Source of the DNA: Nitrososphaerota archaeon
GTDB lineage: Archaea > Thermoproteota > EX4484-205 > JAAOZP01
Direction of reading: 5' to 3'
Length of the DNA: 64,000 nucleotides
Assembly (NCBI GenBank): GCA_011605725.1
Contig: JAAOZP010000012.1
Location: 74,238 to 138,237 of the forward strand
Shown here: positions 6,305 through 55,837 of the stretch, one piece after another
How the letters are laid out: each line of letters opens with the position of its first letter
Numbering within the stretch: position 1 is the first letter of the stretch
Notes under the pieces: model-generated
Database searches by the model: none
The model's input: the letters and a program-made list of their open reading frames with translations, nothing else
What the model was told of the DNA's origin: nothing
Position numbers and translations under genes: made by a program

Positions 6305-6356
6305 CATACTAGGCTTAACAGTTTAAACAATAAGGCTTATTAGGAAAACGAACAGG

Positions 6357-9628: not shown

Positions 9629-9637
9629 AGTGAACAG

Positions 9638-13571: not shown

Positions 13572-13615
13572 AGGTACGAGCAGTATAGACTCTTTAATTT
13601 GATTTTCATCCCCGT

Positions 13616-14224: not shown

Positions 14225-14230
14225 TTCAGA

Positions 14231-15064: not shown

Positions 15065-15370
15065 TGGGAATCACCTTGGCTCATTGTAAACCGTAAATCC
15101 CGGCACAAGACCTCTTAAAACAGCGCGCACTCCACGTGCTCTGCTGAGTCTTGCTCTCCAACCCTGGGGGTTACGCCCAACCCTAGTTTCAGCCTCATCA
15201 ACCTTAACCAGTTCCCCGATCAAACGAAGCATCGTGTCCTTCTTCAGACAGAAGCATCCTTATAAATGCTTCGATCCCGTTGCCCTCATCATCCGAAATT
15301 TTAATGAACCGTTTTTCAAGTTCAAATCCAGAATGAGCATGCGCCTTTAAAGCATAGATTCCTATTATTC

Positions 15371-19948: not shown

Positions 19949-21444
19949 CCTGCTCCACTTCTGTTCTTCCCTATTTTTAATAAATACTTTCCCCTCTCGT
20001 AAAGAACACGGAGAGAGAGAACTGCACGCCTTATGTCTGGGAAAACAGGCATGCCTCTGGACTCAAGCATCCTTATCACCTCCTCTGAATGCAGCCCTCC
20101 GATGATGCATGGAACCATCGGTTTCTTACCGTTTTTAAACCACCACCATGCAATCTCAACCAGCCTGTCCGTAGTGTAAGGAGTTTGAAGCAGTAGAAAA
20201 GCAAGTATGCCGTCAGTATTCTCATCCTCGTTCACAATCCTGAAAACATGGTCAAACATCTCGTCAGTAACGTTCCCAGTAAGGTCGACGGGATTATTCA
20301 CTGAAGCGAAGCTCGGCAGTTTTTCCCTAAGCCTCTTCTTCGAGTCATGAGAGAGTTCAGCCATTCTCAACTCTCCCCCGACGTTTCTATCCTCAATGTA
20401 ATCAGCCGCGATTACCCCATAGCCTCCACCTGACGTCACCACGACGATGTTTGGACCAAAAATCGGCTTCTGGTAGGCAAGAATACGTGAATAGTCGAAG
20501 AGTTCCAGAAGATCATTCGCCCTGATCACCCCGACTTGCTTTAAGGCTCCATCCATAGCTTGACTCGGCTTAGCCATAGAGCCGGTGTGCAACATAGCTG
20601 CCCTCGCACCCGTCTCGGTTCTTCCGGCTTTAAGTATCACTACAGGTTTGTAGGGAGTAATTTTCCTGCAAAGCTCGAGTAAGCGTCTCCCGTCTGCGAA
20701 GCTTTCAATATGCATGCATAACACCTTAGTTTTATCATCCTTGGAAAAGAATTCGAGCATATCGTTCTCGTTAACGTCCAGCTTGTTGCCCAGGCCGACG
20801 AAGGCGGAAATACCATATTGATGGTACTCAGCCATATCCATGAAGCCACTTGCAGAAGCCCCGCTTTGAGAGATGTAGGCTATTGGACCGTCAGGCGGCC
20901 TCCTAGACTTCTCCCTTAGTACAAACATCGTGTCCAGGCTTTCGCTAGGAACATAAACACCCAGCGTGTTTGGCCCAAGCAACACCATGTTTGTATTAGC
21001 GATCCTATTTTTAATCTCTTCCTCCAGTTTACGCCCCTCCTCCCCCGTTTCGCCGAAGCCTGCGGAGATAACTATAACCGCCTTAACGCTCTTTCTAATG
21101 CAATCATCAATCACGCTTGGAACACTTCTAGCAGGCACAGCAATGACCGCGAGATCAACATCCTCAGGAATATCGCTAACTCTCCCATATGCTTTCACAC
21201 CGTCAATAGTCTCCTGCTTAATGTTGACAGGATATTTCCTACCGGGAAAACTCTGCAGGTAGCTCCACATTATCCCGCCTATTTTAAGCCTGTTTGAAGA
21301 AGCCCCGATTAAAGCAACGCTTCTAGGATGAATTAAATAGTTTAAGTTAGAATACCTCTCTTTTACACGCCTACGAGAGGACATTTCTAATCCGTAAGCC
21401 GGTTGAACCTGGCTTCGCCGACGCTTGCTGTAGCTCACACTCAA
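19945..21444 (-). CDS. Acetyl-CoA synthetase (ADP-forming), alpha subunit (CoA-binding plus succinyl-CoA synthetase-like domains)
   Basis: 499 aa; CoA-binding N-terminus HPRSVALIGASSNRLKIGG; true start may be an internal Met. Confidence 0.75.
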   Translation of the reverse strand: MSVSYSKRRRSQVQPAYGLEMSSRRRVKERYSNLNYLIHPRSVALIGASSNRLKIGGIMWSYLQSFPGRKYPVNIKQETIDGVKAYGRVSDIPEDVDLAVIAVPARSVPSVIDDCIRKSVKAVIVISAGFGETGEEGRKLEEEIKNRIANTNMVLLGPNTLGVYVPSESLDTMFVLREKSRRPPDGPIAYISQSGASASGFMDMAEYHQYGISAFVGLGNKLDVNENDMLEFFSKDDKTKVLCMHIESFADGRRLLELCRKITPYKPVVILKAGRTETGARAAMLHTGSMAKPSQAMDGALKQVGVIRANDLLELFDYSRILAYQKPIFGPNIVVVTSGGGYGVIAADYIEDRNVGGELRMAELSHDSKKRLREKLPSFASVNNPVDLTGNVTDEMFDHVFRIVNEDENTDGILAFLLLQTPYTTDRLVEIAWWWFKNGKKPMVPCIIGGLHSEEVIRMLESRGMPVFPDIRRAVLSLRVLYERGKYLLKIGKNRSGAG

Positions 21445-23943: not shown

Positions 23944-24381
23944 TCAACTTTTCCCCTTCCACCACTGGAACAGCTTTTTACTAAGCTCATGTATCTTCCT
24001 AGCGCTATCTATTGCTTTCTCAGCATCCTCCCTGGAATATAGCTCCCTAGGCGGGATGAAGGCATTCTCATCCCCGTAGAAAGCCGGACCCCTTTCTCCG
24101 GCAAGCCTTTTACTCGCAATACTGATTGTTTCCAGTTCAAATCTAAACCAGTCTGGAAGAACTCTTATGCGAGCGATTTCAGCCAATGCATCGCTGACAT
24201 CGTGCTCGCGTGGATACTCTACGCCAAGTAGTCTGAGAACAGCCTTCAGGCTTAGTTCAACGCTTTCCTGCGCCCTCCTAACAGTTCTGTGATACATCTT
24301 TTTGGCTAAGGCTTCTTCAGCCTCGTAGAGGGAATACTCAGCATCGTCAAGATAGCCTCTAGCCATAGCCTCGGTGTTCAA
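23944..24381 (-). CDS. HEPN domain protein (toxin-antitoxin partner of MNT)
   Basis: 145 aa helical protein immediately downstream of and overlapping the nucleotidyltransferase gene; R-x-x-H-like element in VEYPREHDV. Confidence 0.65.
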   Translation of the reverse strand: MNTEAMARGYLDDAEYSLYEAEEALAKKMYHRTVRRAQESVELSLKAVLRLLGVEYPREHDVSDALAEIARIRVLPDWFRFELETISIASKRLAGERGPAFYGDENAFIPPRELYSREDAEKAIDSARKIHELSKKLFQWWKGKS

Positions 24382-24917
24382 ATCTCAACGACCTCGCCAG
24401 GTTTTATATCGGGTTTCAGATCCCAGAGCCACGTTCCATTCTTAAGGTAAATGCGTCTAGCTTTGAGTTCATCCAGCCTTTTCCTAAGGTTGGTGAAAAT
24501 CGATTCCATAAAGCCATCTTTGTCAACCAAGATAACGGCATCCTCAACCATATCCAAGTATATTGGCCTATGGAACTTTGCCTCCTCCGGAGTAAGAGGG
24601 TAAAATTGCACCCATGTGTTAACACCCTTCTTTCCAAGCTCTTTATACACCGGGGTTTCTCTAAGCTTAATCAGGATCCTAGCCATAATCTCCATTTTTT
24701 CACTAATCCTTTTAGGAAGATTCTCTGCCACAAGGAGGATATCTGTGTCGCTAGTCGGCTTAGCGTCTCCCCTGGCTACGGAACCAAAGACAACTAGGCT
24801 CACCAGTTTTTCTTTAAAAAAATCATTAAGAAGATTAATAATTTCTTTAATGAATTCTCTTCTATCCGGATCTATTATACTGGTTAATCCATATCTTGGC
24901 TTCATCGATCCTTGCAT
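24378..24917 (-). CDS. Minimal nucleotidyltransferase (MNT), Pol-beta superfamily
   Basis: 179 aa; diagnostic LVVFGSVARGDAKPTSDTDILLV (GS...DxD) motif. Confidence 0.85.
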   Translation of the reverse strand: MQGSMKPRYGLTSIIDPDRREFIKEIINLLNDFFKEKLVSLVVFGSVARGDAKPTSDTDILLVAENLPKRISEKMEIMARILIKLRETPVYKELGKKGVNTWVQFYPLTPEEAKFHRPIYLDMVEDAVILVDKDGFMESIFTNLRKRLDELKARRIYLKNGTWLWDLKPDIKPGEVVEI

Positions 24918-26354: not shown

Positions 26355-27362
26355 TCAGAGATCCGTGTAATCAAGCACTACTGGGAGCCCGGGTAGGACC
26401 GGTATTCTAGTTAGGCTGCTCGCCATCCTCCAGGCTTCTATGCTCCACTTACGATGCGCAGGGGTTTCCGAACCCTTATCTTTTATTGAGAAGGCTTTCG
26501 CGAGCATTGGTGATGATGCTATGATTGATGAGACTATTCCGCCTAAGAGGCCCAGCGGATTATTCAGAAAGAATGTTGCTAAAAGCCCAGTTAGCAAGCC
26601 TACTGCGGCGAGGGCTGCTGAGGCGGTTAGCATTGTTGCCCGTGACCTAGTGCTTAACGGGTACTCGACAAAGAGGACCCTGCCCCCGGCCGCGTCCAGG
26701 AGAATCCTGTACGGCTTACCCTTGTAAGCGTACTCCATTAGCCAGAACGGGTAGTGGACTAGCCCAAGATAGTTAACTTCAACCCTCTCAAGCCTCTTTG
26801 AGCCTCCGCAGCTCCTGCTAGCTTCATCCATAGCCTGCCCAGATATTAACCGGTACGCGATATTATAGGCTTCCTCGTAGCTCAAGGTAGGCATGTAGAA
26901 CCTGCTTCTCTGGGCTTGACTCGGGTTGAAGAAGCTTCTCCCCCTCACCGAGAACGAGAGTTCCTTGGCATGGTTGTCGAGCCAGGTGCCTGTGTACGCT
27001 GCCAGAATAGGCGTGTTCCGCGTCTCAAGGTAGCTGGCCTGCCTGTCGCCGTAGGAGCAGGAGGAGTATGCCTTGCAGCTGAAAACATGATAGGGAACGT
27101 TGTAGAGCTCAGCTTTGCGAAGATTAGCCTCAGCGTTGAAATCGTCAGGTACGCCGTACCTCCTGGTTATGAACTGCATTGCTTTACGCCAGGCTGACGG
27201 GCTCTCCACGTAGGCTGGAAACATGTAGTATGTCCAGGTCTTCCCGGTTGAAAGCTCGAAGGTGTGGCCGCAGTAGGGGCAGACGATTATTGAGGCTGAT
27301 TGCGGCGCGTTTATAGAAGCGTTGCAGTTTAGGCACGTGACTGTCTTCATGCTCACTTCCAC
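26355..27362 (-). CDS. Uncharacterised protein: N-terminal zinc ribbon, central conserved domain, C-terminal transmembrane hairpin (paralog A)
   Basis: 335 aa; CLNC...CPYC ribbon, internal W-x3-Y-x-YKG-x2-YR motif (FWLMEYAYKGKPYR), C-terminal hydrophobic segments; start overlaps paralog B by 10 nt. Confidence 0.5.
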   Translation of the reverse strand: MEVSMKTVTCLNCNASINAPQSASIIVCPYCGHTFELSTGKTWTYYMFPAYVESPSAWRKAMQFITRRYGVPDDFNAEANLRKAELYNVPYHVFSCKAYSSCSYGDRQASYLETRNTPILAAYTGTWLDNHAKELSFSVRGRSFFNPSQAQRSRFYMPTLSYEEAYNIAYRLISGQAMDEASRSCGGSKRLERVEVNYLGLVHYPFWLMEYAYKGKPYRILLDAAGGRVLFVEYPLSTRSRATMLTASAALAAVGLLTGLLATFFLNNPLGLLGGIVSSIIASSPMLAKAFSIKDKGSETPAHRKWSIEAWRMASSLTRIPVLPGLPVVLDYTDL

Positions 27363-28315
27363 TTCTCCTCCCTAACGTCGCTAACAGCCTTACTCGCCAG
27401 GAGGGCTCCGGCTGCTGAAACAAGTATGAAGCCGAGTACTGGAAACCATTCTCTGAAAGACGGCAGGAGGGCCAGTATGAAGGCGCCTGCCGCAACTGAC
27501 AGGATGCTTCCGAGTATGTACAGTATTCTCTGGCCTAGGAAGACTGGTTCCGAAACCCTTAGGAATTGAAGGTTGTAGCCTGAGACGCTTGCCCTATACA
27601 TTCCACCCTTATACTTGTATACGAGGCTCCACATCGGAGCCAGCAGTATCCAGAGCGAGTTCACCCTGGCCTCGCAGGAATAATAGTAGAAGCCGTCTAA
27701 GCCGTTGGATGAGCGTGTGCTTTCCCTCAGCTCGTCCTCAACCATGTCCTTAAGCTCGTCCTCAGCCTCCTCAGGGAGAAGCTCAGCGTTTAAAACCTGT
27801 AGCCCAACGTTCCTCCAGTCTACCGCAGCTAGGGGTTGAGGGTCTTTAGCGGACTTCGCCTGGCTCACAAGCTCCTCCAAGCCGTACTCAGCAGCCTCCC
27901 TCCTAGCCGTGAAGGCGAGCCTCATCGAAGTGTTGAAAGACCCTTTCTTCGTCACGGTCCTGGTGACGAACGATTTACCCCTTTTCTCAGTAACCCTCCG
28001 GAAACCGGACCACTCGACGAAAGCGGAAACATCCCCCATGAGAATCGGCACGTAGAAGCCCTGAGCCTCGACAAGCTCAATGTCGCCGTAGACCCTGCTC
28101 ATATCCGGGTCGCTCCTCATCCTGCTCCAGAAGGCGTTCACCACCTCATCCCTTGTCCGAGTCGGCAGTATGAATATTTCAAACCTCCCTGTTGAGAACC
28201 AGTTAACCGTCCCACAGTATTCGCACACGCATGCTATTGTCTCAGGAGTGTAATTCAAGGGAGCACCGCAGTTTGAGCATTTGAAGACCTTTTCAGATAT
28301 GGTTGACTCTGTCAA
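27353..28315 (-). CDS. Uncharacterised protein: N-terminal zinc ribbon, central conserved domain, C-terminal transmembrane hairpin (paralog B)
   Basis: 320 aa; CSNC...CEYC ribbon, motif MWSLVYKYKGGMYR, two C-terminal hydrophobic helices; start overlaps upstream gene by 4 nt. Confidence 0.5.
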   Translation of the reverse strand: MTESTISEKVFKCSNCGAPLNYTPETIACVCEYCGTVNWFSTGRFEIFILPTRTRDEVVNAFWSRMRSDPDMSRVYGDIELVEAQGFYVPILMGDVSAFVEWSGFRRVTEKRGKSFVTRTVTKKGSFNTSMRLAFTARREAAEYGLEELVSQAKSAKDPQPLAAVDWRNVGLQVLNAELLPEEAEDELKDMVEDELRESTRSSNGLDGFYYYSCEARVNSLWILLAPMWSLVYKYKGGMYRASVSGYNLQFLRVSEPVFLGQRILYILGSILSVAAGAFILALLPSFREWFPVLGFILVSAAGALLASKAVSDVREEKWK

Positions 28316-28716
28316 CGCCTACCAATCCTTGAAACCATTACCCCGACCACGACGATTATTATGAGGGATATGCTCAGGTTCAGCGGCAGGTTTCCGGTGA
28401 GAAGTGTTAGTAAGAGTGAGAAACCGAGGCAGCACATCACTAGTCCCCAAATAAGGTAATACTTAAAGTCGGCAGCGTAAATCGAGAAGAAAATAGTGTA
28501 GAACCCAAGCATGATGAGCGGCAGTGAAACTAGAGTAAGCGGTTCACCGTAGCCTGTTGAAAACAGTATGCCGTCTACGCCTATTGAGACTAGCAGGACA
28601 GCCAGCGCGTAGCTCCCATACCCGGCTTTTCTACTCATCTCATTAGCCTCACAACCACAAGGCGAGCTTTGAATATATAACTTTTCCCTCATCTTCGTCA
28701 AGGATTGAAGGGACAT
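28312..28716 (-). CDS. Small polytopic membrane protein
   Basis: 134 aa (or ~108 aa from an internal Met) with 3-4 hydrophobic helices; start shares one nucleotide with the ATPase stop (TAATG). Confidence 0.4.
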   Translation of the reverse strand: MSLQSLTKMREKLYIQSSPCGCEANEMSRKAGYGSYALAVLLVSIGVDGILFSTGYGEPLTLVSLPLIMLGFYTIFFSIYAADFKYYLIWGLVMCCLGFSLLLTLLTGNLPLNLSISLIIIVVVGVMVSRIGRR

Positions 28717-29996
28717 TACGCACCTCGCCTCAATTTCCTCGTTATGCTTGCCAATTCTTCTGGGCCAAGCTCCTCGTGAGAACCCGACACTCTGGGAGGC
28801 TTCTCGCTGAGACTTATGAGCCCTGCCCTCGGTATTCCTTGGGAATGAATTAGTTCTATAGATCTCCTAGCTTCACTCTCGCTGATCTCCCCTATCTTAA
28901 CTTCATACCCTATCATCGGGGCCCTGCCCTTCGAATCCAAGATGACTATATCCACATCCCCCTTCCCCCCAGGCAGAATCATGTAGCTCCTCACCCCTCC
29001 TAGATACTCGGCAAGCATCTCCCCCAGGCTAAACTGTAGCTCCCTACCCAACACGCTTAGAATAATGCCTTCATCTATTTTTACGCGCGGCGATTCGCTG
29101 ATGTTCAGCTTCTGGTCAAGATAATAGACTAGCGAGAGCAGGGGAGACCTGTGCTTGAAATAGTTCCTCGAACCCCTGGTTTTCCATAGCGGGATTTTCT
29201 CTAGAATCCCCATGCAGGTAAGCCTTTCAAGCAAACCGGTTACTGTTGGAAGGCCGCCAGATATCAGGTTGTTCGCGGTTAAAACCCCTGAGATCTCCGC
29301 TGGCATCCATATGCCTCCTCCCACTATCCTGATGACCGCGTCGTAAACCCTTGTTAACATCCTCTCCTCCTCCTCAAAAACCTCTCCGACAAGCCCAGGT
29401 GCTGACGCAACGAAGTATTGAATCTTATTGCGGATTTCTGAAAAAACATCCTTTTCGAATGAGACCATAGGGATCACCCATGGGTCTCGGACAATCAGCC
29501 CCCATAGTAAGGCGTTCCTGAGGGAAGAACATATCTTACTGAGAGAGAGAACAGCGTCAGAGTAGCTTATCAAGTCCACCTTGAATGGCGAGAACAAGCC
29601 TAGGAGAGGACTCTTTCTCTCGAAAACCCTTCTCACGATGCTGAGGCTCGAACCGCTTGCAACCAGCCTTCCGTTCGGATGGTTCGCGGCAATCGAGTCC
29701 CAATACTTATCTGGCAACCTTTGAAACTCATCCAATAGGACAACCCTTCCATCCCTCAAGAGGTTTCCGATACGTCTAACCGCCTCCTCAGGATTAACAT
29801 GTGAAAAACCGTTTTCATCCCAAGCGGCAACGCTGCCAGACCTGGTCACCATAAAGTAGTTAGACTGGGTGAAAACCCTTTTTAGCAGGAAGGTCTTCCC
29901 GGTTTTCCGCCTCCCGTAAACCAGTATCCATCCTCTTAGACCTCTTAATTCGTCTTCCTCTCTCCTGCTTACTACGATATGAGGAATATTCTCCAT
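28716..29996 (-). CDS. Archaeal-type AAA+ ATPase with C-terminal DUF234-like domain
   Basis: 426 aa; Walker A GRRKTGKT, Walker B VVLLDEF; architecture resembles the PF01637 archaeal ATPase plus DUF234 C-terminus. Confidence 0.65.
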   Translation of the reverse strand: MENIPHIVVSRREEDELRGLRGWILVYGRRKTGKTFLLKRVFTQSNYFMVTRSGSVAAWDENGFSHVNPEEAVRRIGNLLRDGRVVLLDEFQRLPDKYWDSIAANHPNGRLVASGSSLSIVRRVFERKSPLLGLFSPFKVDLISYSDAVLSLSKICSSLRNALLWGLIVRDPWVIPMVSFEKDVFSEIRNKIQYFVASAPGLVGEVFEEEERMLTRVYDAVIRIVGGGIWMPAEISGVLTANNLISGGLPTVTGLLERLTCMGILEKIPLWKTRGSRNYFKHRSPLLSLVYYLDQKLNISESPRVKIDEGIILSVLGRELQFSLGEMLAEYLGGVRSYMILPGGKGDVDIVILDSKGRAPMIGYEVKIGEISESEARRSIELIHSQGIPRAGLISLSEKPPRVSGSHEELGPEELASITRKLRRGA

Positions 29997-30094
29997 AGAA
30001 TATTCCCATTAGAATATTCTTATAAACTTTTAGCTTATCCTACACACCAGTTCAGATTTGCTTCTTAACTATCGAGTCTACTTGTTTATTCAAA

Positions 30095-31249
30095 CTATTG
30101 GAGCTTTGCACCACAATTGAGGCAGAACTTTGAACCCTCAGGCACCGTGGACCCGCATTTCGGACAGTTAACACTCTGAGGCTGCAACTGAGCCCCACAG
30201 TTCATGCAGAACTTTGCGCCAGCAGGGTTCTGCGTTCCGCATTTCGGACAATTCACCGTGGCCTGCATGGGTGCACCGCAGCTCATACAGAATTTAGCTG
30301 TGCTCGGGTTCTGCGCCCCGCATTTAGGGCACGCTACTGTTCCTGCTGGAGGCGCGGCAGGTGGCTGCGCCGGCGGCGGAGGTGCTTGGATGGCTGCGCC
30401 GCAGGACGGGCAGAACTTGCTTGTAGAGGGTACTTGAGCTTTGCAGCTTGGACATATGACCATTGGTGCTGCGGCAGCCTGCTGCATTAGCTGGGGCACC
30501 AGAACTATTCCTGTTCCAGCCGCCGCCCCGGGCGACTTGCTTAGGGACTCGGCGACGCTCTTAGTCGTGTCCATCGCCATGACTTGTGTCGCAGCGCCGC
30601 CGGTCTGCTTTATCCAGAACAGCCTATCCCTGTACTCCGGCGTGGTGTCGACGCCCTCAAACTTTAGGTCTATGACGTCTACGCCGACGCGCTTAAACTC
30701 CTCGTCTATCGTTGCCTTAACCTTGAACGAAACCTCCTCAAGCTTTGTGAAGACCGTCACAAGGTCGTATTTCGAGAGCTGCGTTATCAGCCTCTCGTTC
30801 ATGAAGCCCCGTAGAAAGCTGTTTACGGATTCGGTGGTGTAGGCGCTCTGCCCTCCCACGACCTCCATTACGAACGTCTTTGGGTCTCCAACTTTAAACC
30901 AGAATGCCCCGTAGAACTTCAGGGGTGCGAGCTCAACCGTCTGCCCGCTGGCTCCGAACAATCCTTTAAACTGCTTCGTGGAGACGAATATGACTGTGGC
31001 TTTGAAAGGCGTGGTTTCGAAGCCAGCCACCCTTGTTAAGACGCCTGTGAGCAGCGGAAGGTTCATCGTTGTTAAAGTATGTCTGCCAGGCCCGAAGACA
31101 TCGTAGGCTTTGCCGTCCCTGAAGAATATTGCAGCCTCATACTCGTGGACGATCAGCTGAGCACCCCAGGTTATCTCCTCCTTAGGGTATCTCCAGACGA
31201 TGTCTTCAGCCGAGGCCCCTACCCACTCTATTATCTGAGGCATCTTCAA
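30095..31249 (-). CDS. SPFH (stomatin/prohibitin-like) domain protein with four tandem C-terminal zinc ribbons
   Basis: 384 aa; N-terminal ~250 aa SPFH-like; C-terminus carries four CPxCG-x7-KFCxxCGA units separated by a Pro-rich linker. Confidence 0.6.
   Translation of the reverse strand: MKMPQIIEWVGASAEDIVWRYPKEEITWGAQLIVHEYEAAIFFRDGKAYDVFGPGRHTLTTMNLPLLTGVLTRVAGFETTPFKATVIFVSTKQFKGLFGASGQTVELAPLKFYGAFWFKVGDPKTFVMEVVGGQSAYTTESVNSFLRGFMNERLITQLSKYDLVTVFTKLEEVSFKVKATIDEEFKRVGVDVIDLKFEGVDTTPEYRDRLFWIKQTGGAATQVMAMDTTKSVAESLSKSPGAAAGTGIVLVPQLMQQAAAAPMVICPSCKAQVPSTSKFCPSCGAAIQAPPPPAQPPAAPPAGTVACPKCGAQNPSTAKFCMSCGAPMQATVNCPKCGTQNPAGAKFCMNCGAQLQPQSVNCPKCGSTVPEGSKFCLNCGAKLQ
30098..30460 (-). repeat. 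In-frame tandem coding repeats (four ~75 nt units) encoding the zinc-ribbon modules of the SPFH protein
   Basis: Repeated ccgcatttcggaca / ccgcatttagggca-type units read on the plus strand; all inside the CDS. Confidence 0.6.
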
Positions 31250-31782
31250 ACACCTCCCTTAATGGAGACTATCTCCTCCTCCCTGGAGGCTAAGGCTGAT
31301 TCAAGCTCTCTAGCCTTGGCTTCAAGCTGCTTCAAGAGACCGGGGAGAACATCCAGGCTTCCGGCGCTTGCAGCATTTTCAGCCTCCTCAGCTGTTCTAG
31401 AGACCTCTTCACAAGCTCCTAGAAGCCTATAGTCGTGCTCCATCAGCCTGTCGAGCTCAGCCTCACGAACTTTAACAAGGTCGAAGAAGCCCGCGTAACC
31501 GTAGTCAGCATGCTCAATCTTGTTTATAACCCTGTCTAGGACCGCGGAAACCCTGTTCAGATTCTTAAACAATTCGACCGCGTTTGAGTCGGCAGCCTCT
31601 CTTGAAACTGTTTTCAAACGGAACCTGGCTGCCTCAAGCTTTTTAACCATGAAATCTCTTAGAAGCTTATCTGCTTCCCTCCTAACCTCCTTCTGCTTGT
31701 ATCCCCTGTAGCCCGGGATGTAGGAAGCTATCTTCTCAGCCAGCCCTCTTTTCTCCTCATACTCCTTTATGAATTCGCTCAT
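31246..31782 (-). CDS. Coiled-coil protein of unknown function (putative partner of the SPFH protein)
   Basis: 178 aa, highly charged Glu/Lys/Arg-rich helical sequence; stop overlaps the SPFH gene start by 4 nt. Confidence 0.4.
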   Translation of the reverse strand: MSEFIKEYEEKRGLAEKIASYIPGYRGYKQKEVRREADKLLRDFMVKKLEAARFRLKTVSREAADSNAVELFKNLNRVSAVLDRVINKIEHADYGYAGFFDLVKVREAELDRLMEHDYRLLGACEEVSRTAEEAENAASAGSLDVLPGLLKQLEAKARELESALASREEEIVSIKGGV

Positions 31783-44838: not shown

Positions 44839-45903
44839 TTAAGCATCGCATTCACCATAATAATTCATGAGGCTTTCGAAAGCCGTGCAAACCGCGTCTA
44901 TGTTTTCAAGCGGAACATCTGCATGAATCTCTGAATACATCATTAATCCTCCTTTCTCAGAACCGAGCTTGACAACAGCCTCATGAATGTGGCTCCTGAT
45001 TTCCTCAGGATTGCCGAAGGGGACAAGGAGTTGACGGTCTATATCCAGGTCGATGCAAACCCTCCCCTTGATCTCCTCTCTAATATTGTCTAGCCCGTTA
45101 ACCCGGTCCTGAATATTTAAGACTGAAACACCCGCTTCCATAAGGGCATCAGCCACCTCCATTATGTGGCCGTCAGTATGCAGGTAAACCCTTATCCCTG
45201 AATCCCTGACTCTCCCGAATATTTTCCTGTATGAAGGATAGATAAACCTTCTGAACGTCTTAGGGCTTATTGGCATCCTGTCTTGAAGACCAAGATCGTC
45301 CCCGAAGGAAACCATGTCAACCCTGAGCCTGATGAATCTTTCAACAAGAGCAAGATTATACTCGGTCAACATCTCTATTAGTTTTTCAAGCTGACTAGTG
45401 TTTCTCACGAAGTCCATCATCAGGTTTTCAAATCCTCTCAGATAATAGAGCCTTTGGAAGAAGAAGCCGTGAGGCATACTTCCGACAATAACATCATCCA
45501 TTTTCCTAGCATTTTCTATTCTCTCCTCAATCGCATCCCACGGGTCTAACCCACCACCCTCCTGAACAATGCCTTTCTCCGGATCGGGTAGACTATAGTG
45601 CGCAAAGTCAGACCAATCCTTCAAAGGGTGCTTCACAACCTGACCCTGCAACCCGCTTATGTTAAACCTCCATAAGCATCCGAAGTCATCCAAAACCTCT
45701 CTACCCTTCAACCTGCTTCCGAAGTTGTTAAAGTCGACACTTCCCTTCTTGAACGTTGGGAAAAGCCTAGGATGCCTAGCGAGCAGGTCCTCAAGCTTAT
45801 CCCTATACTTGCTCCAAGTCGTTGGGAAAATTCCCACTCTACAAGGGATCCACCCGCAACCATTCATGTCTATGACTCTAAGCTTTTTCACTCTGATGCT
45901 CAA
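44839..45903 (-). CDS. URO-D family protein (uroporphyrinogen decarboxylase-like, putative methyltransferase)
   Basis: 354 aa; C-terminal half (YLHTDGHIMEV...) follows the URO-D TIM-barrel pattern. Confidence 0.5.
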   Translation of the reverse strand: MSIRVKKLRVIDMNGCGWIPCRVGIFPTTWSKYRDKLEDLLARHPRLFPTFKKGSVDFNNFGSRLKGREVLDDFGCLWRFNISGLQGQVVKHPLKDWSDFAHYSLPDPEKGIVQEGGGLDPWDAIEERIENARKMDDVIVGSMPHGFFFQRLYYLRGFENLMMDFVRNTSQLEKLIEMLTEYNLALVERFIRLRVDMVSFGDDLGLQDRMPISPKTFRRFIYPSYRKIFGRVRDSGIRVYLHTDGHIMEVADALMEAGVSVLNIQDRVNGLDNIREEIKGRVCIDLDIDRQLLVPFGNPEEIRSHIHEAVVKLGSEKGGLMMYSEIHADVPLENIDAVCTAFESLMNYYGECDA

Positions 45904-46012: not shown

Positions 46013-47122
46013 GTGTCAAGGAACCCGAATATAGGTAGACTGCTTAAAGTCCTTCTGAGAGAGGGAGAGCCGGATAGAGTACCTTTCTACGAGCATTTCG
46101 TCGATAACGAGGTTATTGAAGCCTTGACAGGTAAGCCTGTATCTAAGGCTTTAGCTGAAGAAGGCTTGAGCTCAGAGAAATACCTTAACACCTTGATTGA
46201 GTTCTATTCTAGGCTCGGGTACGACTATGTTCCGATGGAGGTTTCTCCTAAACTCCCCAGGACTAATGTTCTTCAGACGAACGATGTCGCTTATCTTTCC
46301 CGTGGGAAAAGAACCTGGCAGGATGAGAACAAGGGGACGATTGAAACAATTGAGGATTTTGAAAAATACCCCTGGCCCAGTCCAGATGAAGCACTGGATT
46401 TTTCAGTGTTTGAAAGACTGAGGAGAAAACTGCCTGAAGGCATGGGGGTTGTTGGGGGAGTCGCCGGAGGATTCTTCGAGCATGTGAGCTGGCTGATGGG
46501 CATTGGAAAACTCTGCAGGGCCGTGTACTTGGACAAGAGGCTTGTTGAAAAAATGTTCAGCAAAATCGCCATGCTAATAATTTCCCTAGACGAGAGGATA
46601 GTTAAGGAAGGGTATGTTGATGCCTTGAGGATGGGTGACGACTTAGGGTATAAGACGGGCACGTTTCTGCCGCCCAGAATCCTACGGGAATACGTTTTCC
46701 CAAACTACAGGAGGCTCGCCGACTTGGCGCATTCGAAAGGACTTCCATTTATAATTCATTCCTGCGGAAACCTGTATACTCCTGACGAAACAGGGAGAAC
46801 AGTGATGGATGATCTTGTGAACAGTGTTAGGATAGATGCTAAACATTCTTTTGAAGACAATATAATGCCAGTATACGAGGTTAAGGAGAAGTATGGGAAT
46901 AAGGTAGCGGTGCTGGGCGGTGTAGACATGAATAAGCTTGTTCAACTTCCTGAGAAAAGCCTGAGGGAGTACGTCAGGCTAATAATTAAGAAGTGCGCAC
47001 CAGGAGGCGCATATGCTTTAGGCTCTGGAAACACGATAGCCAACTATGTGCCCTTAGAAAACTATCTCGCGATGCTCGACGAAGGTTTTAGAAGCGGAGT
47101 ATATCCGATAAGGATTAGTTGA
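46013..47122 (+). CDS. URO-D family protein (uroporphyrinogen decarboxylase-like, putative methyltransferase)
   Basis: 369 aa; IIHSCGNLYTP and downstream pattern typical of URO-D/MtaA-like proteins. Confidence 0.55.
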   Translation: MSRNPNIGRLLKVLLREGEPDRVPFYEHFVDNEVIEALTGKPVSKALAEEGLSSEKYLNTLIEFYSRLGYDYVPMEVSPKLPRTNVLQTNDVAYLSRGKRTWQDENKGTIETIEDFEKYPWPSPDEALDFSVFERLRRKLPEGMGVVGGVAGGFFEHVSWLMGIGKLCRAVYLDKRLVEKMFSKIAMLIISLDERIVKEGYVDALRMGDDLGYKTGTFLPPRILREYVFPNYRRLADLAHSKGLPFIIHSCGNLYTPDETGRTVMDDLVNSVRIDAKHSFEDNIMPVYEVKEKYGNKVAVLGGVDMNKLVQLPEKSLREYVRLIIKKCAPGGAYALGSGNTIANYVPLENYLAMLDEGFRSGVYPIRIS

Positions 47123-47133: not shown

Positions 47134-48300
47134 TCAACACGCGTCAGGCTTAATCCTGTCTAAATGTTTGAAGCGCTCTCTCCTTATCGGATACCTTCCA
47201 ACCTTTTTAGCGTATTCAACCTCATACTTCAAGCGTTCAGGAGGCACTTTGGCATATGTCTCACCGCCATTGTCGAAAACATAGCCGCCGCCGGGTGCAG
47301 CATGAAAAATGCATTTCTCAACCTCAAGCTCAATGCTTTCAAAAGATCCGTCTACTAGAACCCTCCAGTCAGCGTTGCCGTTGAAGAACACTTTCCCCTT
47401 AAACGCTTCACTAATTGTTTTAATATTGTTCTCAACACCTACATCAGCCTCCTTTATCCTGTAAACGTTTACAAGTATGTCTGTTATGTGATCCATGTGT
47501 GAATCCATGTGTAAATACCGGTGGTTGGCGCCGTGCCGCTCGTAAAGCCGAAGGTTATAAGGCATCGCGAACTCCTCGTACATCCTCCTATTCAAGTAGC
47601 CTGAATGATCGTCAGCCAAGCCTAGGCTTCCTGGCCCCGACCCGGAAAGCTCATAATAGTATTCTTGGAGAACGTTGAAAGCCTCCTCCAGTTTTCGGAA
47701 AAGCCTATGCATTTCACTAGGATTCTCATAGAGCCACCGATATAGTTTTCCCGGGCCCAGTAGAGAGCCGGCTGCTGAAACCGGCGGATGTATCTGGAGC
47801 CGGCCTTCGACAGGAAGACCATCATAGTTTTTACGAACAAGCTCCCTGAACTTTTCAAGCTTCTCATAGTAGGCTTGAACCCCTTTGTGGCGATGCGGGT
47901 CCGGAACCTCCAGCTTATCAATATCCTCAAGAGTCTTAATGCGGGGAATTATCCATGGGCTGAGCCAAGGGTTTCTCTCATCAGGCATTTCAATCTTGCA
48001 GTCGAAAACAATGCCTTCAGATACGGCTCCAAGGTCTAGATGCACCCCTATACTTGTTAAATCATCTTCAAGCCATTTCAGCCTCCATTTCAATCCTTTC
48101 ACTTGAGCATCCAGCATTATACTCGTATCGTTATAGTATTCGGCGAAAGTATAGCCAAAAAGCATCGCGTAATATGGTCCTCCCAGCCCTATGATAACCG
48201 GAACCCTATCAGGCTCCTTAAACTGAGCAGCTTTCTCAACGCGCTTCCTATTCTCCTCCAGGAGACTCGAATACTTGGCTTTGTTGAAAGGCTCCATCAA
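47134..48300 (-). CDS. URO-D family protein (uroporphyrinogen decarboxylase-like, putative methyltransferase)
   Basis: 388 aa; C-terminal LHMDSHMDHITD...AAPGGGYVFDNG pattern typical of the family. Confidence 0.5.
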   Translation of the reverse strand: MMEPFNKAKYSSLLEENRKRVEKAAQFKEPDRVPVIIGLGGPYYAMLFGYTFAEYYNDTSIMLDAQVKGLKWRLKWLEDDLTSIGVHLDLGAVSEGIVFDCKIEMPDERNPWLSPWIIPRIKTLEDIDKLEVPDPHRHKGVQAYYEKLEKFRELVRKNYDGLPVEGRLQIHPPVSAAGSLLGPGKLYRWLYENPSEMHRLFRKLEEAFNVLQEYYYELSGSGPGSLGLADDHSGYLNRRMYEEFAMPYNLRLYERHGANHRYLHMDSHMDHITDILVNVYRIKEADVGVENNIKTISEAFKGKVFFNGNADWRVLVDGSFESIELEVEKCIFHAAPGGGYVFDNGGETYAKVPPERLKYEVEYAKKVGRYPIRRERFKHLDRIKPDAC

Positions 48301-50397: not shown

Positions 50398-50781
50398 TCA
50401 GCATGCTAGAAGCAAAGCGATAGCTATCGCAACGTCACTCGTCCTATCATGGCTTAAGCTGATTAAAACTCTTCTAGCACCCTTCTCGCGGAGAAGATTG
50501 AGAAGCGGTTCACTCATAACTATTCTGACCTCCGAGTTGACCGTTTCAGTCTCAACACCCCTCCACCCTAGCCGGCTTCTGCTAGCATGACCTATGGCTT
50601 TGAAAACCGCCTCTTTGGCTGCAAACCTTGCGGCTAGCTTCTCGTAGGGACAGCCCGATTGAAAACAGTATTCAATCTCCCTATCTGTGAAAACCCTTTT
50701 TAGAAAACGTTCACCGCCCTTCTCTATAGCCTTCTTAACCCTGTTTATCGAAACAGCATCAACGCCAACCCCGGTTATCAA
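50398..50781 (-). CDS. acpS: Holo-[acyl-carrier-protein] synthase (4'-phosphopantetheinyl transferase)
   Basis: 127 aa; MITGVGVDAVSINRV...KEAVFKAIG pattern typical of AcpS. Confidence 0.7.
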   Translation of the reverse strand: MITGVGVDAVSINRVKKAIEKGGERFLKRVFTDREIEYCFQSGCPYEKLAARFAAKEAVFKAIGHASRSRLGWRGVETETVNSEVRIVMSEPLLNLLREKGARRVLISLSHDRTSDVAIAIALLLAC

Positions 50782-52358: not shown

Positions 52359-53570
52359 TTAATGGTTTAATAAGTGTTTCCTAGTCTCCTCAGCTATAGC
52401 AAGCTCCTCATCAGTCGGTATAACTAGAACCTTAACCCTAGACTGCCTACTGCTTATCACCCCAGTTCTGCCCACTGTCACCCTATTCGCATCCTCGTCA
52501 ATCATTAAACCTAGGAAACTCATGTTGTCACATATCATTCTCCTTATGAGAGGATCGTTCTCACCTATCCCGCCTGTGAAAACAAGTATGTCGAGCCCAC
52601 CCAACACTACGGTGTAAGCACCTATATACTTTTTAGCCCTGTAGGCAAAGATATCTAGGGCAAGCCTAGCCCTTTTGCTGCCAGCCTCAGCCTCCCTCTC
52701 CACATCCCTAATATCGTTGCTAACACCCGAGACACCAAGGAGCCCACTCTTCTTGTTAAGAATGTCTTCAACCTCCCTGGGGGAGAAGCCCTCGCCGATC
52801 AGGTAGAAAACTATCGACGGGTCTATGTCCCCGCTTCTAGTACCCATGACCAGGCCTTCCAACGGGGTGAAACCCATGCTAGTATCTATTGACCGTCCGT
52901 TTTTAATAGCGGTTATGCTGCAGCCGTTTCCGAGATGACAAGTCACCATCCTGAGCTTCTCAAGAGGCTTGCCAAGTATCTCGGCAGCCCTGTGAGCAAC
53001 ATACCTGTGGCTTGTCCCGTGAAACCCGTATCTCCTTATTCCGAACTTCTCGTAAAGCTCGTAAGGTATGGCGTAGAGATAAGCTGTCTCCGGCATAGTC
53101 TGGTGGAAAGCGGTGTCGAACACCGCTACCTGGGGGACTTTTGGAAGAAGGCTTCGCGCAGCCTCTATACCAGCTATGTTCGGAGGATTATGGAGCGGAG
53201 CCAGGTAAGCCCATTTCCTAAGGGCCTCCAGAACCTTTTCGTCGACAACCGTGGCTTCGAAGAAAGAATCCCCGCCGTGAACAACCCTGTGTCCAACTGC
53301 AACTATTTCCTCGAGTGAAGCAATAGCCTTCGGCTCAGCATCGAGGAGAACCCTGAGAATAAGCTCAAGGCCCTGCCTGTGGTTGGAAACATCAACCTCG
53401 CTTCTAGACACGATTCCACGAACCTCATGTTTTAAAACCGCCGGCCTGCTTCCGATTCTCTCCAGCAGGCCGCTGGCAACACCCGTCAATAAATCAGCGT
53501 CGAAAAGCTTGTACTTTATTGATGAGCTACCGCAGTTCACGACAAGTATTTTCCCCGGCAACCCTTTCAC
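52359..53570 (-). CDS. ackA: Acetate kinase
   Basis: 403 aa; N-terminal [16 protein letters not shown] and full-length ASKHA-fold pattern. Confidence 0.9.
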
Positions 53571-54571
53571 CCGGCTGACTGCGCTAGAACGGAGACAACA
53601 GCCATAGCTCCAACGATGTCTTCAACCTTAGCACCCCTTGAAAGATCGCTGACGGGCTTCTTGAAACCCTGGAGAATAGGACCGTAGGCTCCTGCTCCAG
53701 CCACGTGTTGAGTAAGCTTGTACGCTATGTTTCCAGCATTCAGATCGGGAAATATAAGGATGTTAGCCCTGCCGGCTACCGGGCCGAGATCTTTCATCTT
53801 CTTCCTGGCAACATCCATCACGAGCGCCGCGTCAGCCTGAAGCTCCCCGTCAACCTTGATCTCGGGCGCCCGCTTCTTAACGATCTCGGTTGCTCGAACC
53901 ACCTTATCCACAAGAGGATGTACTGCACTACCCTTGGTTGAGAATGAGAGCATCGCTACCCTCGGCTCCCAGCCTAGGAGCCTACTGACGCTTCTAGCTG
54001 TGGATACAGCTATGTCCGCAAGCTGCTCAGGAGTTGGATCCGGATTTACCGCAGCGTCAGCGTAAACCAGGACACCGTTTTCACCAATATTCTTGTTCCC
54101 GGTCTCCATTATGAAGAAGCTTGAAGGTGTTTCAACCCCCTTCTCATACCCAATTACAAGATGGCTGGCTTTAATAACGTTTGCAGTAGTGGTGGAGGCA
54201 CCGGCAACCATCGCGTCAGCCAAACCCGTCTTAACCATCATGCAGGCAAAATAAAGCGGCTTGCTGAGTATTCTTCTCGCAACAGCCTCGCTGACACTCT
54301 TCTCCTCCCGGGCCCTGCAATACTCCTTGACAAAACCGTCTAAATAGCCGGAGGCCGCTAAGTCTACGACTTCAACACCGGTTAAGGATAAGCCCAGCGA
54401 AGCAGCGTTCTTCTCCACGGTTTCTCTCGAGCCTAACAGTATTGGTTTTGCAATACCCTGCTCCACGGAGGCGGCGGCTGCCCTCAGTATCCTTTCATCC
54501 TCAGGCTCAGGTAGAATAATCCTCATAGGCTTCTCCCTAGCCCTGTTCTTTATCAGCTGGATTACTGACAA
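53567..54571 (-). CDS. pta: Phosphate acetyltransferase (short form)
   Basis: 334 aa; N-terminus [16 protein letters not shown]...KPILLG typical of Pta; stop overlaps the ackA start by 4 nt. Confidence 0.85.
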
Positions 54572-54772
54572 TCTGCGGCTGGAAACCCGGAGAATTTAAT
54601 AAACTTTTTGCGTTAAGCGTCTCATCACCTGGTGTGCAGCATTGCTGGGCGTAACACTATCTTAGGCGGAACATGGTTCATCTTTCTAATCTTCAGCTGC
54701 ATGCATCAACATTAACTCAGAAATAACTGGTTAGAAAGCCTTTTAAAAGGAGGAACCAGTAGTATTTTCGGG

Positions 54773-55837
54773 ATGAAAATAAGGTCCATAACGCTTTTCG
54801 CAGCATCCGGGGAAATGCAGAGCGTTAGAGAACGCGTCTCAAACCTGGGCTCAATGCTTTCATTCAACATAGAATCAATGTTTCTGTCGGAAAGCGTTTG
54901 GAGCACGAGGGTTGCGCTTCCACCCTTAAGCGAGCAGGAAACCCCTATGAAGAGAGCCTCTCAGCTTCTTGATCTAAACGTTGTAAACTATGCTTCAATA
55001 GGTCAGGTTGAGGATGCGCATCCGGCTTTAGAGGAGGTTGTGGAGGTTGTTGAAAACGGGCTCTACGTTTCTATAAACATGAGGAGCACAGATAGGATTA
55101 AGAGTATTGAAAAGGTTTTGAGAAAAGCATGTGAGAAAAACCCTTCTAACGGAAGCCGGATATGTGTCAACATGGGTGGAGACATATTTACACCATATTT
55201 TCCTTCAGCATGCAACCTGCATGGTGAAGAAGGATTAGCAATATCTCTACTGTATCCCAGTCTCCTCAGACACAAGCATTTAAACCAGTTTCAAGACATT
55301 CTCGCCGAAGTTTACGCTTCAACCGAAAAAGTTGGTCTAAAGCTTTCCGAAAGGCTTGGGATCAATTACTACGGGGTTGACGCCTCACTGTCACCCTGGA
55401 TGGAGGAGAGCGTCGCAGAGATCATTGAGTTCGCCTCAGGGGTTAGAATACCGCTTCCAGGAACCCTCAGCACGATTAGAGAGATAAACAGCCTTATAAG
55501 GAGTGCTGTTAAAACGGCTGGGATAAGGGCGACAGGCTACAATGAGGTCATGCTGCCGGTTGCTGAAGATAATGTTTTGAAGGAGAGGGTTGCGGCGGGA
55601 GACGTTAAGCTCAGGGACCTTGTATACTTGGCTTCAGCATGCGTCTCCGGAGTCGATATGGTTGTGGTCTCAGACAATGCTCCTAGCAGGATTATAGAGG
55701 GAGTTTTTAAAGACCTTTTTGAAATAAGCATGTTGAAAGGCAGAGCCACCGGGTTGAGAATGATTTTCGCATCAGCAGAACCGGGTGAAACAGTTAAACT
55801 TAATTTCTTCGGGTGGACACCCGTTATATCGCCCTAA
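54773..55837 (+). CDS. Hypothetical protein, possibly DUF711/UPF0210-like
   Basis: 354 aa; N-terminal KIRSITLF resembles the IRTITMG start of UPF0210 proteins; weak. Confidence 0.3.
   Translation: MKIRSITLFAASGEMQSVRERVSNLGSMLSFNIESMFLSESVWSTRVALPPLSEQETPMKRASQLLDLNVVNYASIGQVEDAHPALEEVVEVVENGLYVSINMRSTDRIKSIEKVLRKACEKNPSNGSRICVNMGGDIFTPYFPSACNLHGEEGLAISLLYPSLLRHKHLNQFQDILAEVYASTEKVGLKLSERLGINYYGVDASLSPWMEESVAEIIEFASGVRIPLPGTLSTIREINSLIRSAVKTAGIRATGYNEVMLPVAEDNVLKERVAAGDVKLRDLVYLASACVSGVDMVVVSDNAPSRIIEGVFKDLFEISMLKGRATGLRMIFASAEPGETVKLNFFGWTPVISP

Follow-up and report, generated by a model that had tools for sequence, protein, structure and literature searches.

The locus described here raises the question of what a phosphate acetyltransferase (Pta) and an acetate kinase (Ack) do in an archaeon that also encodes an acetyl-CoA synthetase of the ADP-forming type (ACD). 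Both enzyme pairs are encoded on one archaeal contig, JAAOZP010000012.1, 31 kb apart in a stretch of 64,000 nucleotides (positions 74,238 to 138,237) that is called the window throughout. Pta interconverts acetyl-CoA plus phosphate and acetyl phosphate plus coenzyme A (CoA), Ack interconverts acetyl phosphate plus ADP and acetate plus ATP, and one ATP is gained or spent. A sequence-only reading of the window noted both pairs and took them to suggest flexible acetate metabolism or horizontal transfer of ack-pta. That reading omitted the operon context of the pair, which alters its likely role. The pta and ack genes head a tight string of five genes on the same strand, in which they are followed by genes for a GlmU-like protein (altGlmU), an acyl carrier protein (ACP) and the holo-ACP synthase AcpS. 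The conserved gene neighbourhoods lead us to favour a reading in which pta-ack serves a module for amino-sugar/ACP acetylation and ACD is the general enzyme; the two routes would then probably be specialised and not redundant. What is new is the operon context, which is apparently undescribed so far, and the cross-domain module only.

The five genes are separated by -4, 35, 1 and 14 nt along the operon (Table 1). The pta and ack genes share the 4 nt GTGA, with the pta stop codon overlapping the GTG start of ack. The gene for the GlmU-like protein begins 35 nt past ack and is preceded by a GGTGAGG motif, and AcpS is encoded 14 nt downstream of ACP. A TATA-like element is found upstream of pta only. 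This element, AAAGTTTATTAAAT, lies ~27–29 nt 5' of the pta start codon inside a 201-nt intergenic region and is a putative archaeal BRE/TATA box, from which we infer a leaderless operon transcript. A scan for sigma-70 promoters and intrinsic terminators gives counts within ~1.5 standard deviations of shuffled sequences and is uninformative for an archaeon.

The GlmU-like protein consists of a degenerate nucleotidyltransferase-like N-terminal domain and a left-handed beta-helix acyltransferase domain. It scores 385 bits against TIGR03991 (alt_bact_glmU, a 'hypothetical equivalog' with a cutoff of 225). The best Foldseek matches of its AlphaFold2 model (pLDDT 79, pTM 0.82) are Sulfolobus ST0452 (3e-11) and bacterial GlmU (1e-8), with a TM of ~0.45. 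Assignment of the third gene to the ACP-dependent LpxA/LpxD type was rejected, as GlmU and ST0452 come out ahead in the fold search. Conservation of the beta-helix domain is very high across the 17 aligned members of the GlmU-like family. The N-terminus of the window protein is MKVCVFEDEKYDLLYPLTLTRA and the family-wide consensus is MKxCIFEDxKYDNLYPLTLTRP. The nucleoside triphosphate (NTP) loop G-x-G-T-R-(M/L) is absent at the N-terminus in all 17 members, and the protein is named 'GlmU-like', not GlmU, because this canonical loop is missing. No paper on the TIGR03991 family was found.

The window ACP has the attachment motif A-E-S36-I-D and not the canonical D-S-L. Its ratio of non-synonymous to synonymous divergence (dN/dS) is 0.028 against its counterpart in contig L083, described below. 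ACP and AcpS are reportedly rare in archaea. The Pfam inventory of the window contains no fab or plsX genes.

The contig belongs to the archaeal Thermoproteota class EX4484-205 (Brockarchaeota), family JAAOZP01, and is of hot-spring origin. The taxonomy is based on exact protein matches and synteny, because the window is without rRNA, tRNA and universal marker genes. Scans of the 64-kb window for tRNA, rRNA and Rfam families gave no match, no ribosomal-protein or other universal marker is present among its ~55 open reading frames (ORFs) in the Pfam inventory, and the 10 kb past the window start contain metabolic genes only, with no marker genes. Seven window proteins, spread over 10.7–54.6 kb, are identical to those of one metagenome-assembled genome (MAG) at NCBI, a 'Thaumarchaeota/Nitrososphaerota archaeon', with accessions that run in window order from NHV99088 to NHV99132. 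The neighbourhood is fully syntenic, with proteins 89–93% identical, in the 858-kb contig L083 (MAG JAWCCC) and the 636-kb contig L084 (MAG JAVZKF). Supplementary file 5 of the Tengchong hot-spring study lists these two MAGs, which are 92% complete, as d__Archaea; p__Thermoproteota; c__EX4484-205; o__EX4484-205; f__JAAOZP01; g__JAAOZP01, and a passage of the same study equates EX4484-205 with 'Brockarchaeota' (PMC11094006). The gene content also fits Brockarchaeota as characterised in parts of their founding paper, with a tetrahydrofolate one-carbon (C1) cluster, several URO-D/MtaA-like methyltransferases, and GH127 and GxGYxYP glycosidases (PMC8065059). The sequence-only reading had considered that the contig might be bacterial, in which case Ack-Pta would be unremarkable; protein identity to an archaeal MAG and synteny with GTDB-classified MAGs identify it as archaeal.

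The five-gene string extends well beyond the window lineage. In L083 and L084, where Pta is 93% identical to that of the window, the whole neighbourhood is syntenic. In L085 and L086 (Pta 70%) the string is identical and the flanks are unrelated. The flanks are also unrelated in L087 and L088 (Pta 65%), where PCNA is 5 kb away, a PIG-L deacetylase gene lies between pta and ack and a NagB-like gene lies upstream (11152-11829 for the PIG-L de-N-acetylase and 9056-9865 for the NagB-like gene in L087). AcpS closes the string in L083–L090. In Bathyarchaeota B24 the string adjoins EMG1, Rpr2, P1, P0, L1, L11, Spt5, FtsY and prefoldin genes; the Ack of its cluster mate P0055 is 62% identical. The GlmU-like protein is distributed in the same way as Ack and Pta, first in the window's own lineage and then in B24 and Brockarchaeota (~57%). 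Its next relatives are from Poribacteria, Abditibacteriales, Aerophobetes and Elusimicrobia (48–51%). In the supplementary KEGG Orthology (KO) table of Brockarchaeota, ackA is listed for MAGs JZ-2.136 and DRTY-6.80; among the KOs listed, acpS is found only on the two ackA-holding contigs, three genes away, and fabF, fabH, fabD, plsX and acpP are absent. On the other side of pta, a divergent DUF711 (PF05167/UPF0210) gene keeps its position only in L001, L002, L083 and L084, and not in L085–L090.

Relatives of the GlmU-like gene were collected by scanning metagenome contigs with the family alignment, which gave 80 loci with 40–59% identity to the GlmU-like protein, for 90 loci in all. Every ORF up to 4 kb away from the GlmU-like gene was clustered without prior labels, and the labels were verified by Pfam. 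Many contigs are short. The resulting counts are lower bounds, since the ORF caller missed some 81-aa ACP genes. ACP is a neighbour of the GlmU-like gene at at least 41 of the 90 loci, Ack at at least 39 and Pta at at least 37. A NagB-like protein is present at at least 29, AcpS at at least 22 and a fused ACD at at least 7 of the 90. In the 34 loci with 3 kb or more on both sides, Pta, Ack or ACD is adjacent in 26, and one or more of ACP, Pta, Ack and ACD are present in 29. Neighbour cluster 4, made up of antisense low-complexity ORFs in GC-rich contigs, was excluded as an artefact.

The gene order differs between the two domains. In archaea it is Pta-Ack-GlmU-like-ACP-AcpS. In bacterial contigs, which are recognised by rpsA, ispH and plsC, it is NagB-Pta-GlmU-like-ACP-Ack-(AcpS), with the GlmU-like and ACP genes between pta and ack. 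NagB-like glucosamine-6-phosphate isomerases adjoin the module in both archaeal and bacterial versions. The GlmU-like relative lies beside pta and nagB in a Poribacteria-like locus (L089; NagB-like 8273-9067) and beside ack-pta in an Abditibacteriales locus (L092). A third variant, in which ACD takes the place of Pta/Ack, is seen in the fully flanked Elusimicrobia locus L091, where the GlmU-like relative lies beside ACP, nagB (NagB-like 851-1639) and a fused 702-aa ACD. The order is thus shuffled while membership is constant, and Pta/Ack are displaced by a non-homologous enzyme with the same net reaction; these are classical signs of functional coupling.

The control set consists of 80 bacterial ack loci from an Ack search of the contigs, in which the matches listed are only bacteria (50–58% identity). 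At none of these 80 ordinary bacterial ack loci listed is altGlmU or AcpS next to ack. An ACP gene is near ack at 8 of the 80 loci listed, ~2–3 kb downstream in most, and several of these are Clostridia. The module ACPs also have a common motif. In an alignment of the window ACP, 41 neighbour ACPs and one E. coli reference (which serves only to place the motif column), 39 of the 43 sequences, from both domains, have A-E-S-[I/V/L] at the phosphopantetheine site. The E-S-[IVL] motif indicates a dedicated ACP subfamily.

These neighbourhoods bear on an alternative in which Ack-Pta is a free-standing second route to acetate in fermentation, with substrate-level phosphorylation (or a route of acetate uptake), redundant with ACD, and the GlmU-like, ACP and AcpS neighbours are frozen synteny from the donor. 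Both enzymes are fully canonical, and the CoA-binding residue R88 of Pta is kept. Passages in three papers treat the pta-ack of Bathyarchaeia or Thermoproteota as an alternative acetate pathway (PMC8407382, PMC11094006, PMC10321748). Bacterial pta-ack is often near acpP without a known biochemical reason, as at the 8 loci above, and some bacterial module loci lie inside a housekeeping run of plsC, ispH and rpsA. Frozen synteny is harder to reconcile with five genes that remain linked in archaea at >35% protein divergence, where the flanks have been exchanged, and with a membership that is kept despite the change of order between domains and despite the replacement of Pta/Ack by ACD beside altGlmU and ACP. 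Strong purifying selection on ACP and AcpS, the distinctive E-S-x subfamily, and the way in which Brockarchaeota acpS tracks ackA with no type II fatty-acid synthase (FAS II) genes among the KOs listed also speak against it. We regard a free-standing route as less likely than not.

The pta and ack genes are intact and under purifying selection. The AckA and Pta signatures and the 4-nt overlap described in the sequence-only reading were recovered in ORFs of exactly the reported extent, which pass their family cutoffs and have intact catalytic residues. Ack matches PF00871 with E=2.9e-155 and 517 bits (cutoff 22) over profile positions 1–392 of 392, and TIGR00016 with 516 bits (cutoff 293). In comparison with Thermotoga (2iir) and Methanosarcina (1g99/1tuu) Ack, the catalytic residues N12, R95, H127, D152, H184, N215, R245 and E388 are all kept. 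The acetate pocket is kept as V97, L126, F183 and P236. The corresponding residues in M. thermophila, known from Ferry-lab work, are N7, R91, H123, D148, H180, N211, R241 and E384 for catalysis and V93, L122, F179 and P232 for the pocket. Pta is identical to NCBI NHV99132.1, is without an N-terminal regulatory domain, and matches PF01515 (E=6e-111, 371 bits) and the equivalog TIGR00651 (338.8 bits, cutoff 311.2). Its S311-R312 (in DLSRG) and D318 (in VEDIV) align in 1qzt with the M. thermophila catalytic Ser309-Arg310 and Asp316. At the CoA-phosphate-binding positions, Arg87 is kept as R88, and Arg133 of M. thermophila is K134, with retention of the positive charge. At position 133, Bathyarchaeia-type sequences have Arg, and one Poribacteria sequence has Thr.

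The kinase/transacylase pair could in principle act mainly on propionate or another short-chain acid and not on acetate. The NCBIfam name for the kinase is at subfamily level only ('acetate/propionate family kinase'), and the kinase matches propionate-kinase models strongly, at scores that are below their cutoffs. The match to butyrate-kinase models is only 96–111 bits against cutoffs of 222–289, all four acetate-pocket residues of M. thermophila are kept, and Pta is above the pta equivalog cutoff and far below those of the butyryl-transferase and branched-chain models. A main substrate other than acetate is very unlikely.

The ACD-type enzyme 31 kb away, which the sequence-only reading had identified as an ADP-forming acetyl-CoA synthetase, is a two-subunit NDP-forming acyl-CoA synthetase. 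Its alpha and beta genes are adjacent, with a 4-nt ATGA overlap, and the five-domain content is split between them, with domains 1, 2 and 5 in alpha and the ATP-grasp domains 3 and 4 in beta. Both ACD histidines are present in the alignment to 2csu and 4xyl: the phospho-histidine H286 of alpha in LHTGS, and H70 of beta in HKTDVGGV. The best Protein Data Bank matches of alpha are archaeal ACDs (2csu, E=2e-82; 4xyl, E=1e-74), which both align from residue 33–34; beta matches 4xyl_B with E=4.5e-36 and is identical to NCBI NHV99096.1 'acetyl-CoA synthetase'. The enzyme certainly belongs to the ACD family. Its use of acetate is inferred, because alpha scores 446 bits against TIGR02717 and is below the equivalog cutoff of 567; ADP-forming 3-hydroxypropionate and 4-hydroxybutyrate CoA ligases are comparable matches of alpha. 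The alpha ORF as listed starts at TTG and has ~33 extra residues that align to no solved homologue, and no entry of the protein collection is this exact 499-aa product. Translation probably starts at an internal ATG ~20–33 codons downstream of the listed TTG.

The sequence-only reading had suggested horizontal transfer of ack-pta. The bacterial type of Ack-Pta stands; the transfer is not recent, and any transfer was ancient and involved the five-gene block, not ack-pta alone. The comparison of codon usage and GC content with the rest of the window, which that reading had proposed, gives no sign of recent transfer. Leave-one-out log-likelihood z scores for codon usage are +1.05 for ack and -0.29 for pta, and the z score for GC at third codon positions (GC3) is ~+0.5. 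A mild GC excess in pta (z 1.6) is confined to codon positions 1 and 2 and therefore reflects amino-acid composition. Between the window and L083, synonymous divergence (dS) is 0.53–0.76 for the operon genes and 0.66–0.77 for the flanking genes, and dN/dS is 0.03–0.18 for all five operon genes. The operon genes have thus diverged at the pace of the flanking chromosomal genes, under purifying selection.

The phylogenies of Ack and Pta, also proposed in that reading, were computed by neighbor-joining (NJ) with Kimura distances and 100 bootstraps. In the Ack tree, the window sequence is in a clade of archaeal-labelled sequences only, with 99% bootstrap support. This clade contains the window lineage, the group of Brockarchaeota, L085 and L087, and Bathyarchaeota including B24. 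Its neighbours are a second archaeal-labelled group and then Latescibacteria, Aerophobetes and Abditibacteriales, with weak support (24–49%). Methanosarcina Ack is placed elsewhere, with Clostridium. The Pta tree is congruent with the Ack tree: a split with 100% support separates ordinary bacterial Pta from a group of the archaeal Ptas and three bacterial ones (Poribacteria, Abditibacteriales). The NJ tree of altGlmU is congruent with both. These trees are consistent with one old acquisition of a bacterial-type gene set, which would be independent of the Methanosarcina event. The pta-ack pair is vertically inherited within its lineage, and the bacterial-type module probably reached a subset of the TACK archaea at an early time. 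This subset comprises the window lineage, other Brockarchaeota and some Bathyarchaeia.

An explanation of ack-pta by recent transfer, contamination with a bacterial contig or a chimeric assembly deserves next to no credence. It could draw on the fact that all five genes are of bacterial-type families, and that bacterial Ack (58–60%) is only slightly more distant than Bathyarchaeota Ack. It is opposed by codon usage and GC3 that are the same as in the rest of the window, by dS that is the same as in flanking genes, by synteny with the two 92%-complete Brockarchaeota MAGs, and by the position of the B24 string next to an archaeal ribosomal-protein/Spt5 cluster. The pta-ack locus has also been assembled independently in several samples, on contigs of up to 438 kb.

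In the favoured reading of specialised routes, pta-ack would work with the three downstream genes and would supply or buffer an activated acetyl group. The beta-helix acyltransferase of the GlmU-like protein would use this acetyl group for N-acetylation of an amino sugar, and the dedicated ACP would take part. NagB and, in one lineage, the PIG-L deacetylase are recurrent partners. The two-subunit ACD at 19–21 kb would be the general fermentative enzyme that converts acyl-CoA to acid and ATP. A wider proposal is tentative: pta-ack may be the energy and acetyl-activation arm of an undescribed bacterial-archaeal module of NagB, Pta/Ack or ACD, the GlmU-like protein, the E-S-x ACP and AcpS, in which acetate-derived acetyl goes to an amino sugar or another acceptor, possibly via acetyl-ACP.

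Several points weigh against the specialised role. The evidence that would link pta-ack to the three downstream genes is of one kind, conserved gene neighbourhood. Because the 80 metagenome loci are those most closely related to the archaeal altGlmU, the association may be confined to that subfamily. The module could also be synteny inherited from a bacterial housekeeping super-operon; plsC, ispH and rpsA are present as well at some bacterial loci. The GlmU function of the GlmU-like protein is uncertain, given an N-terminal domain without the canonical NTP loop. With R88 kept and a conservative K134, nothing in Pta shows use of ACP. The score of alpha below its equivalog cutoff weakens the acetate specificity of ACD. 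In the trees, which are simple-distance NJ trees with bacterial Ack sisters at 24–49%, the donor and the direction of transfer are not fixed.

The role of ACP is the subject of a further explanation, a CoA-independent acetyl relay. Ack would form acetyl phosphate, Pta would act in the manner of PlsX and load the holo-ACP made by AcpS, and the GlmU-like protein would N-acetylate a NagB-linked amino-sugar phosphate. PlsX (acyl-ACP:phosphate transacylase), which connects acyl phosphate with ACP, is homologous to Pta. Bacterial module Ptas match PF02504 (PlsX family) weakly, and the altGlmU-linked Ptas form the group that is separated from ordinary bacterial Pta at 100% bootstrap. The module always includes ACP and AcpS as members, the module ACPs have their special E-S-[IVL] motif, and the KOs listed for Brockarchaeota provide no FAS II context for an ACP. 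Pta itself gives no indication of lost CoA binding, however, and a Pta that acts on ACP is without known biochemical precedent. The GlmU-like fold resembles the CoA-using GlmU and ST0452 and not the ACP-using LpxA/LpxD, and in the ACD variant Pta/Ack are replaced by a CoA ligase. We consider such a relay unlikely.

The co-occurrence of the two routes is itself ordinary. Pta-Ack is said to have been described earlier for Ca. Bathyarchaeia. The premise of the sequence-only reading that Ack-Pta is uncommon in archaea is outdated for this part of the tree. Passages of PMC11094006 report pta-ack in Bathyarchaeia and in DPANN, Asgard and Thermoproteota hot-spring MAGs, beside widespread acdAB. For Ca. 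Bathyarchaeia, both acd and pta-ack are described in sections of PMC8407382, with Family-7.2 in both lineage lists and with a citation of in-vitro activity of heterologously expressed Bathyarchaeia Ack, and ack, pta and ACSS are called 'prevalent' in a passage of PMC10321748. The founding paper on Brockarchaeota treats only ACD and acetyl-CoA synthetase (ACS) in the relevant parts of its main text (PMC8065059). Since both routes are already reported in Bathyarchaeia and hot-spring Thermoproteota, the coexistence of pta-ack and acd is not surprising. It matters little as such, and public records annotate the genes correctly. No mention of a link between pta-ack and altGlmU, ACP or AcpS was found in the passages of this literature that deal with archaeal Pta-Ack.

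The operon context offers a concrete reason for two acetate/acetyl-CoA systems in these archaea, namely specialisation and not redundancy. Strong purifying selection on ACP and AcpS and the lack of a fatty-acid synthase among the Brockarchaeota KOs listed point to a role of ACP outside lipid synthesis. If this is true, these archaea, apparently without an ACP-dependent fatty-acid synthase, would have a fatty-acid-independent ACP. The module is conserved and apparently uncharacterised in candidate bacterial phyla, Bathyarchaeia and Brockarchaeota, and its members can be expressed and assayed.

Other features of the window include a tetrahydrofolate (H4F) C1 cluster that is of bacterial type although the host is an archaeon. 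The cluster agrees with the H4F methyl branch reported from Brockarchaeota in a section of PMC8065059, which also refers to an 'undescribed protein' needed for methyl transfer from the corrinoid protein to H4F. The MtrH-family protein of the cluster, which matches NCBIfam MtgA (methyl-corrinoid:tetrahydrofolate methyltransferase) with E=1.5e-79, below the cutoff, is an obvious candidate for this transfer. The 5-formyl-tetrahydrofolate cyclo-ligase is a 462-aa fusion of the cyclo-ligase (residues 22–201) and a membrane region (~221–362) with weak matches to S-components of energy-coupling factor (ECF) transporters; it may couple folate salvage to uptake. Three of the four URO-D (MtaA/MtbA-like) methyltransferase paralogues form a cluster just past the operon, and these three are kept in L083/L084.

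Some regions differ in composition. A 262-aa ORF without a Pfam match has a GC content of 0.395 and a GC3 of 0.29 (z = -4.1); it is present in the related contig L093 and may be a more recent acquisition. The glycerol module contains an FGGY kinase, a DAO/BFD GlpA-like dehydrogenase and a Pyr_redox_2 GlpB-like protein, and a 140-aa minus-strand ORF with aberrant codon usage (z = -4.35) at its end is probably a shadow of the plus-strand DUF1667 gene called in L093. A GC-richer region (0.52–0.56) includes ORFs without a family match, an AAA_14 ATPase and an SPFH/Band-7 protein with at least four zinc-ribbons and DUF7575/DUF7577 domains. HEPN (145 aa) and minimal nucleotidyltransferase (MNT; 179 aa) genes overlap in the typical arrangement of HEPN-MNT toxin-antitoxin pairs. 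A 191-aa protein matches Arrestin_N (38 bits, Pfam cutoff 24.9) and has a weak Rgp1 match and a C-terminal zinc-ribbon, which places an arrestin fold in a TACK archaeon.

Table 1. Features of the window with their positions, strands and basis of assignment.
Feature	Position	Strand	Basis or group
A/T-rich element AAAGTTTATTAAAT, putative BRE/TATA box	54594-54607	-	read from sequence; consensus resemblance and spacing
pta, class-I phosphate acetyltransferase, 334 aa, first gene of operon	53567-54571	-	PF01515, TIGR00651, alignment to 8fir, 6iow, 1qzt
ack, acetate kinase, 403 aa	52359-53570	-	PF00871, TIGR00016, residues vs 2iir and 1g99
GlmU-like two-domain protein, 426 aa	51043-52323	-	TIGR03991, PF13562 and Hexapep, AlphaFold2 model
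Acyl carrier protein, 81 aa	50796-51041	-	PF00550; TIGR00517 82.8 bits vs cutoff 70.45
AcpS, holo-ACP synthase, 127 aa, last operon gene	50398-50781	-	PF01648; TIGR00516 62 bits vs cutoff 59.8
Alpha subunit, two-subunit NDP-forming acyl-CoA synthetase (ACD type)	19945-21444	-	CoA_binding_2, Succ_CoA_lig, Ligase_CoA_2
Beta (ATP-grasp) subunit, ACD type	19271-19948	-	PF13549 (ATP-grasp_5) E=2.4e-43
DUF711 gene	54773-55837	+	PF05167/UPF0210
Tetrahydrofolate C1 cluster	10721-18072
Fhs	10721-12457		tetrahydrofolate cluster
MtrH-family protein	12648-13571	+	tetrahydrofolate cluster
PurN	13616-14224		tetrahydrofolate cluster
FolD	14231-15064		tetrahydrofolate cluster
5-formyl-tetrahydrofolate cyclo-ligase	15371-16759	+	tetrahydrofolate cluster
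FolC-like Mur-ligase protein	16744-18072		tetrahydrofolate cluster
URO-D methyltransferase paralogue	7488-8561
URO-D methyltransferase paralogue	44839-45903
URO-D methyltransferase paralogue	46013-47122
URO-D methyltransferase paralogue	47134-48300
Glycerol module	1570-6330
Minus-strand ORF, 140 aa	5908-6330	-
ORF without Pfam match, 262 aa	9638-10426	+
HEPN and minimal nucleotidyltransferase genes	23944-24917	-
GC-richer region	26355-31782
ORFs without family match	26355-28716
SPFH/Band-7 protein	30095-31249
ORFs without family match	31246-31782
Arrestin_N protein, 191 aa	37893-38468	-

The genes of the window resemble several known systems. The ACD-type enzyme shares with those of Pyrococcus and Ca. 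Korarchaeum (2csu, 4xyl) the two-subunit architecture of alpha and beta, both histidines and the overlapping genes; it differs in the alpha score below the equivalog cutoff, in a family in which other acyl-CoAs are also used. The GlmU-like protein has the nucleotidyltransferase-like domain and left-handed beta-helix of GlmU and ST0452 and passes the TIGR03991 cutoff. Unlike GlmU, it is without the G-x-G-T-R loop and has pta/ack or acd, ACP and nagB as gene neighbours. In the pta-ack...plsX-acpP neighbourhood of Firmicutes, as in the window, an ACP gene is within a few kb of pta-ack. The window differs in having altGlmU and AcpS by ack, in an ACP with E-S-x instead of D-S-L, and in having no plsX or fab genes.

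Two comparisons concern Ack and Pta of other archaea. The Ack-Pta of Methanosarcina, which acts in aceticlastic methanogenesis (1g99, 1qzt), is from the same two families and shares the catalytic residues. In the tree, Ack of Methanosarcina is found with that of Clostridium, well away from the TACK clade, which indicates an independent acquisition; earlier work is said to agree with this. We know of no altGlmU, ACP or AcpS partners of the Methanosarcina pair. The Pta-Ack of Bathyarchaeia, other TACK archaea, Asgard archaea and DPANN is, as in the window, a bacterial-type pair that uncultured anaerobic archaea encode in addition to acd. The window differs from the Bathyarchaeia, Asgard and DPANN systems in its placement in class EX4484-205 (Brockarchaeota). 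Ack of Bathyarchaeota, including B24, is in the same 99%-supported clade as that of the window, and B24 has the same five-gene string.

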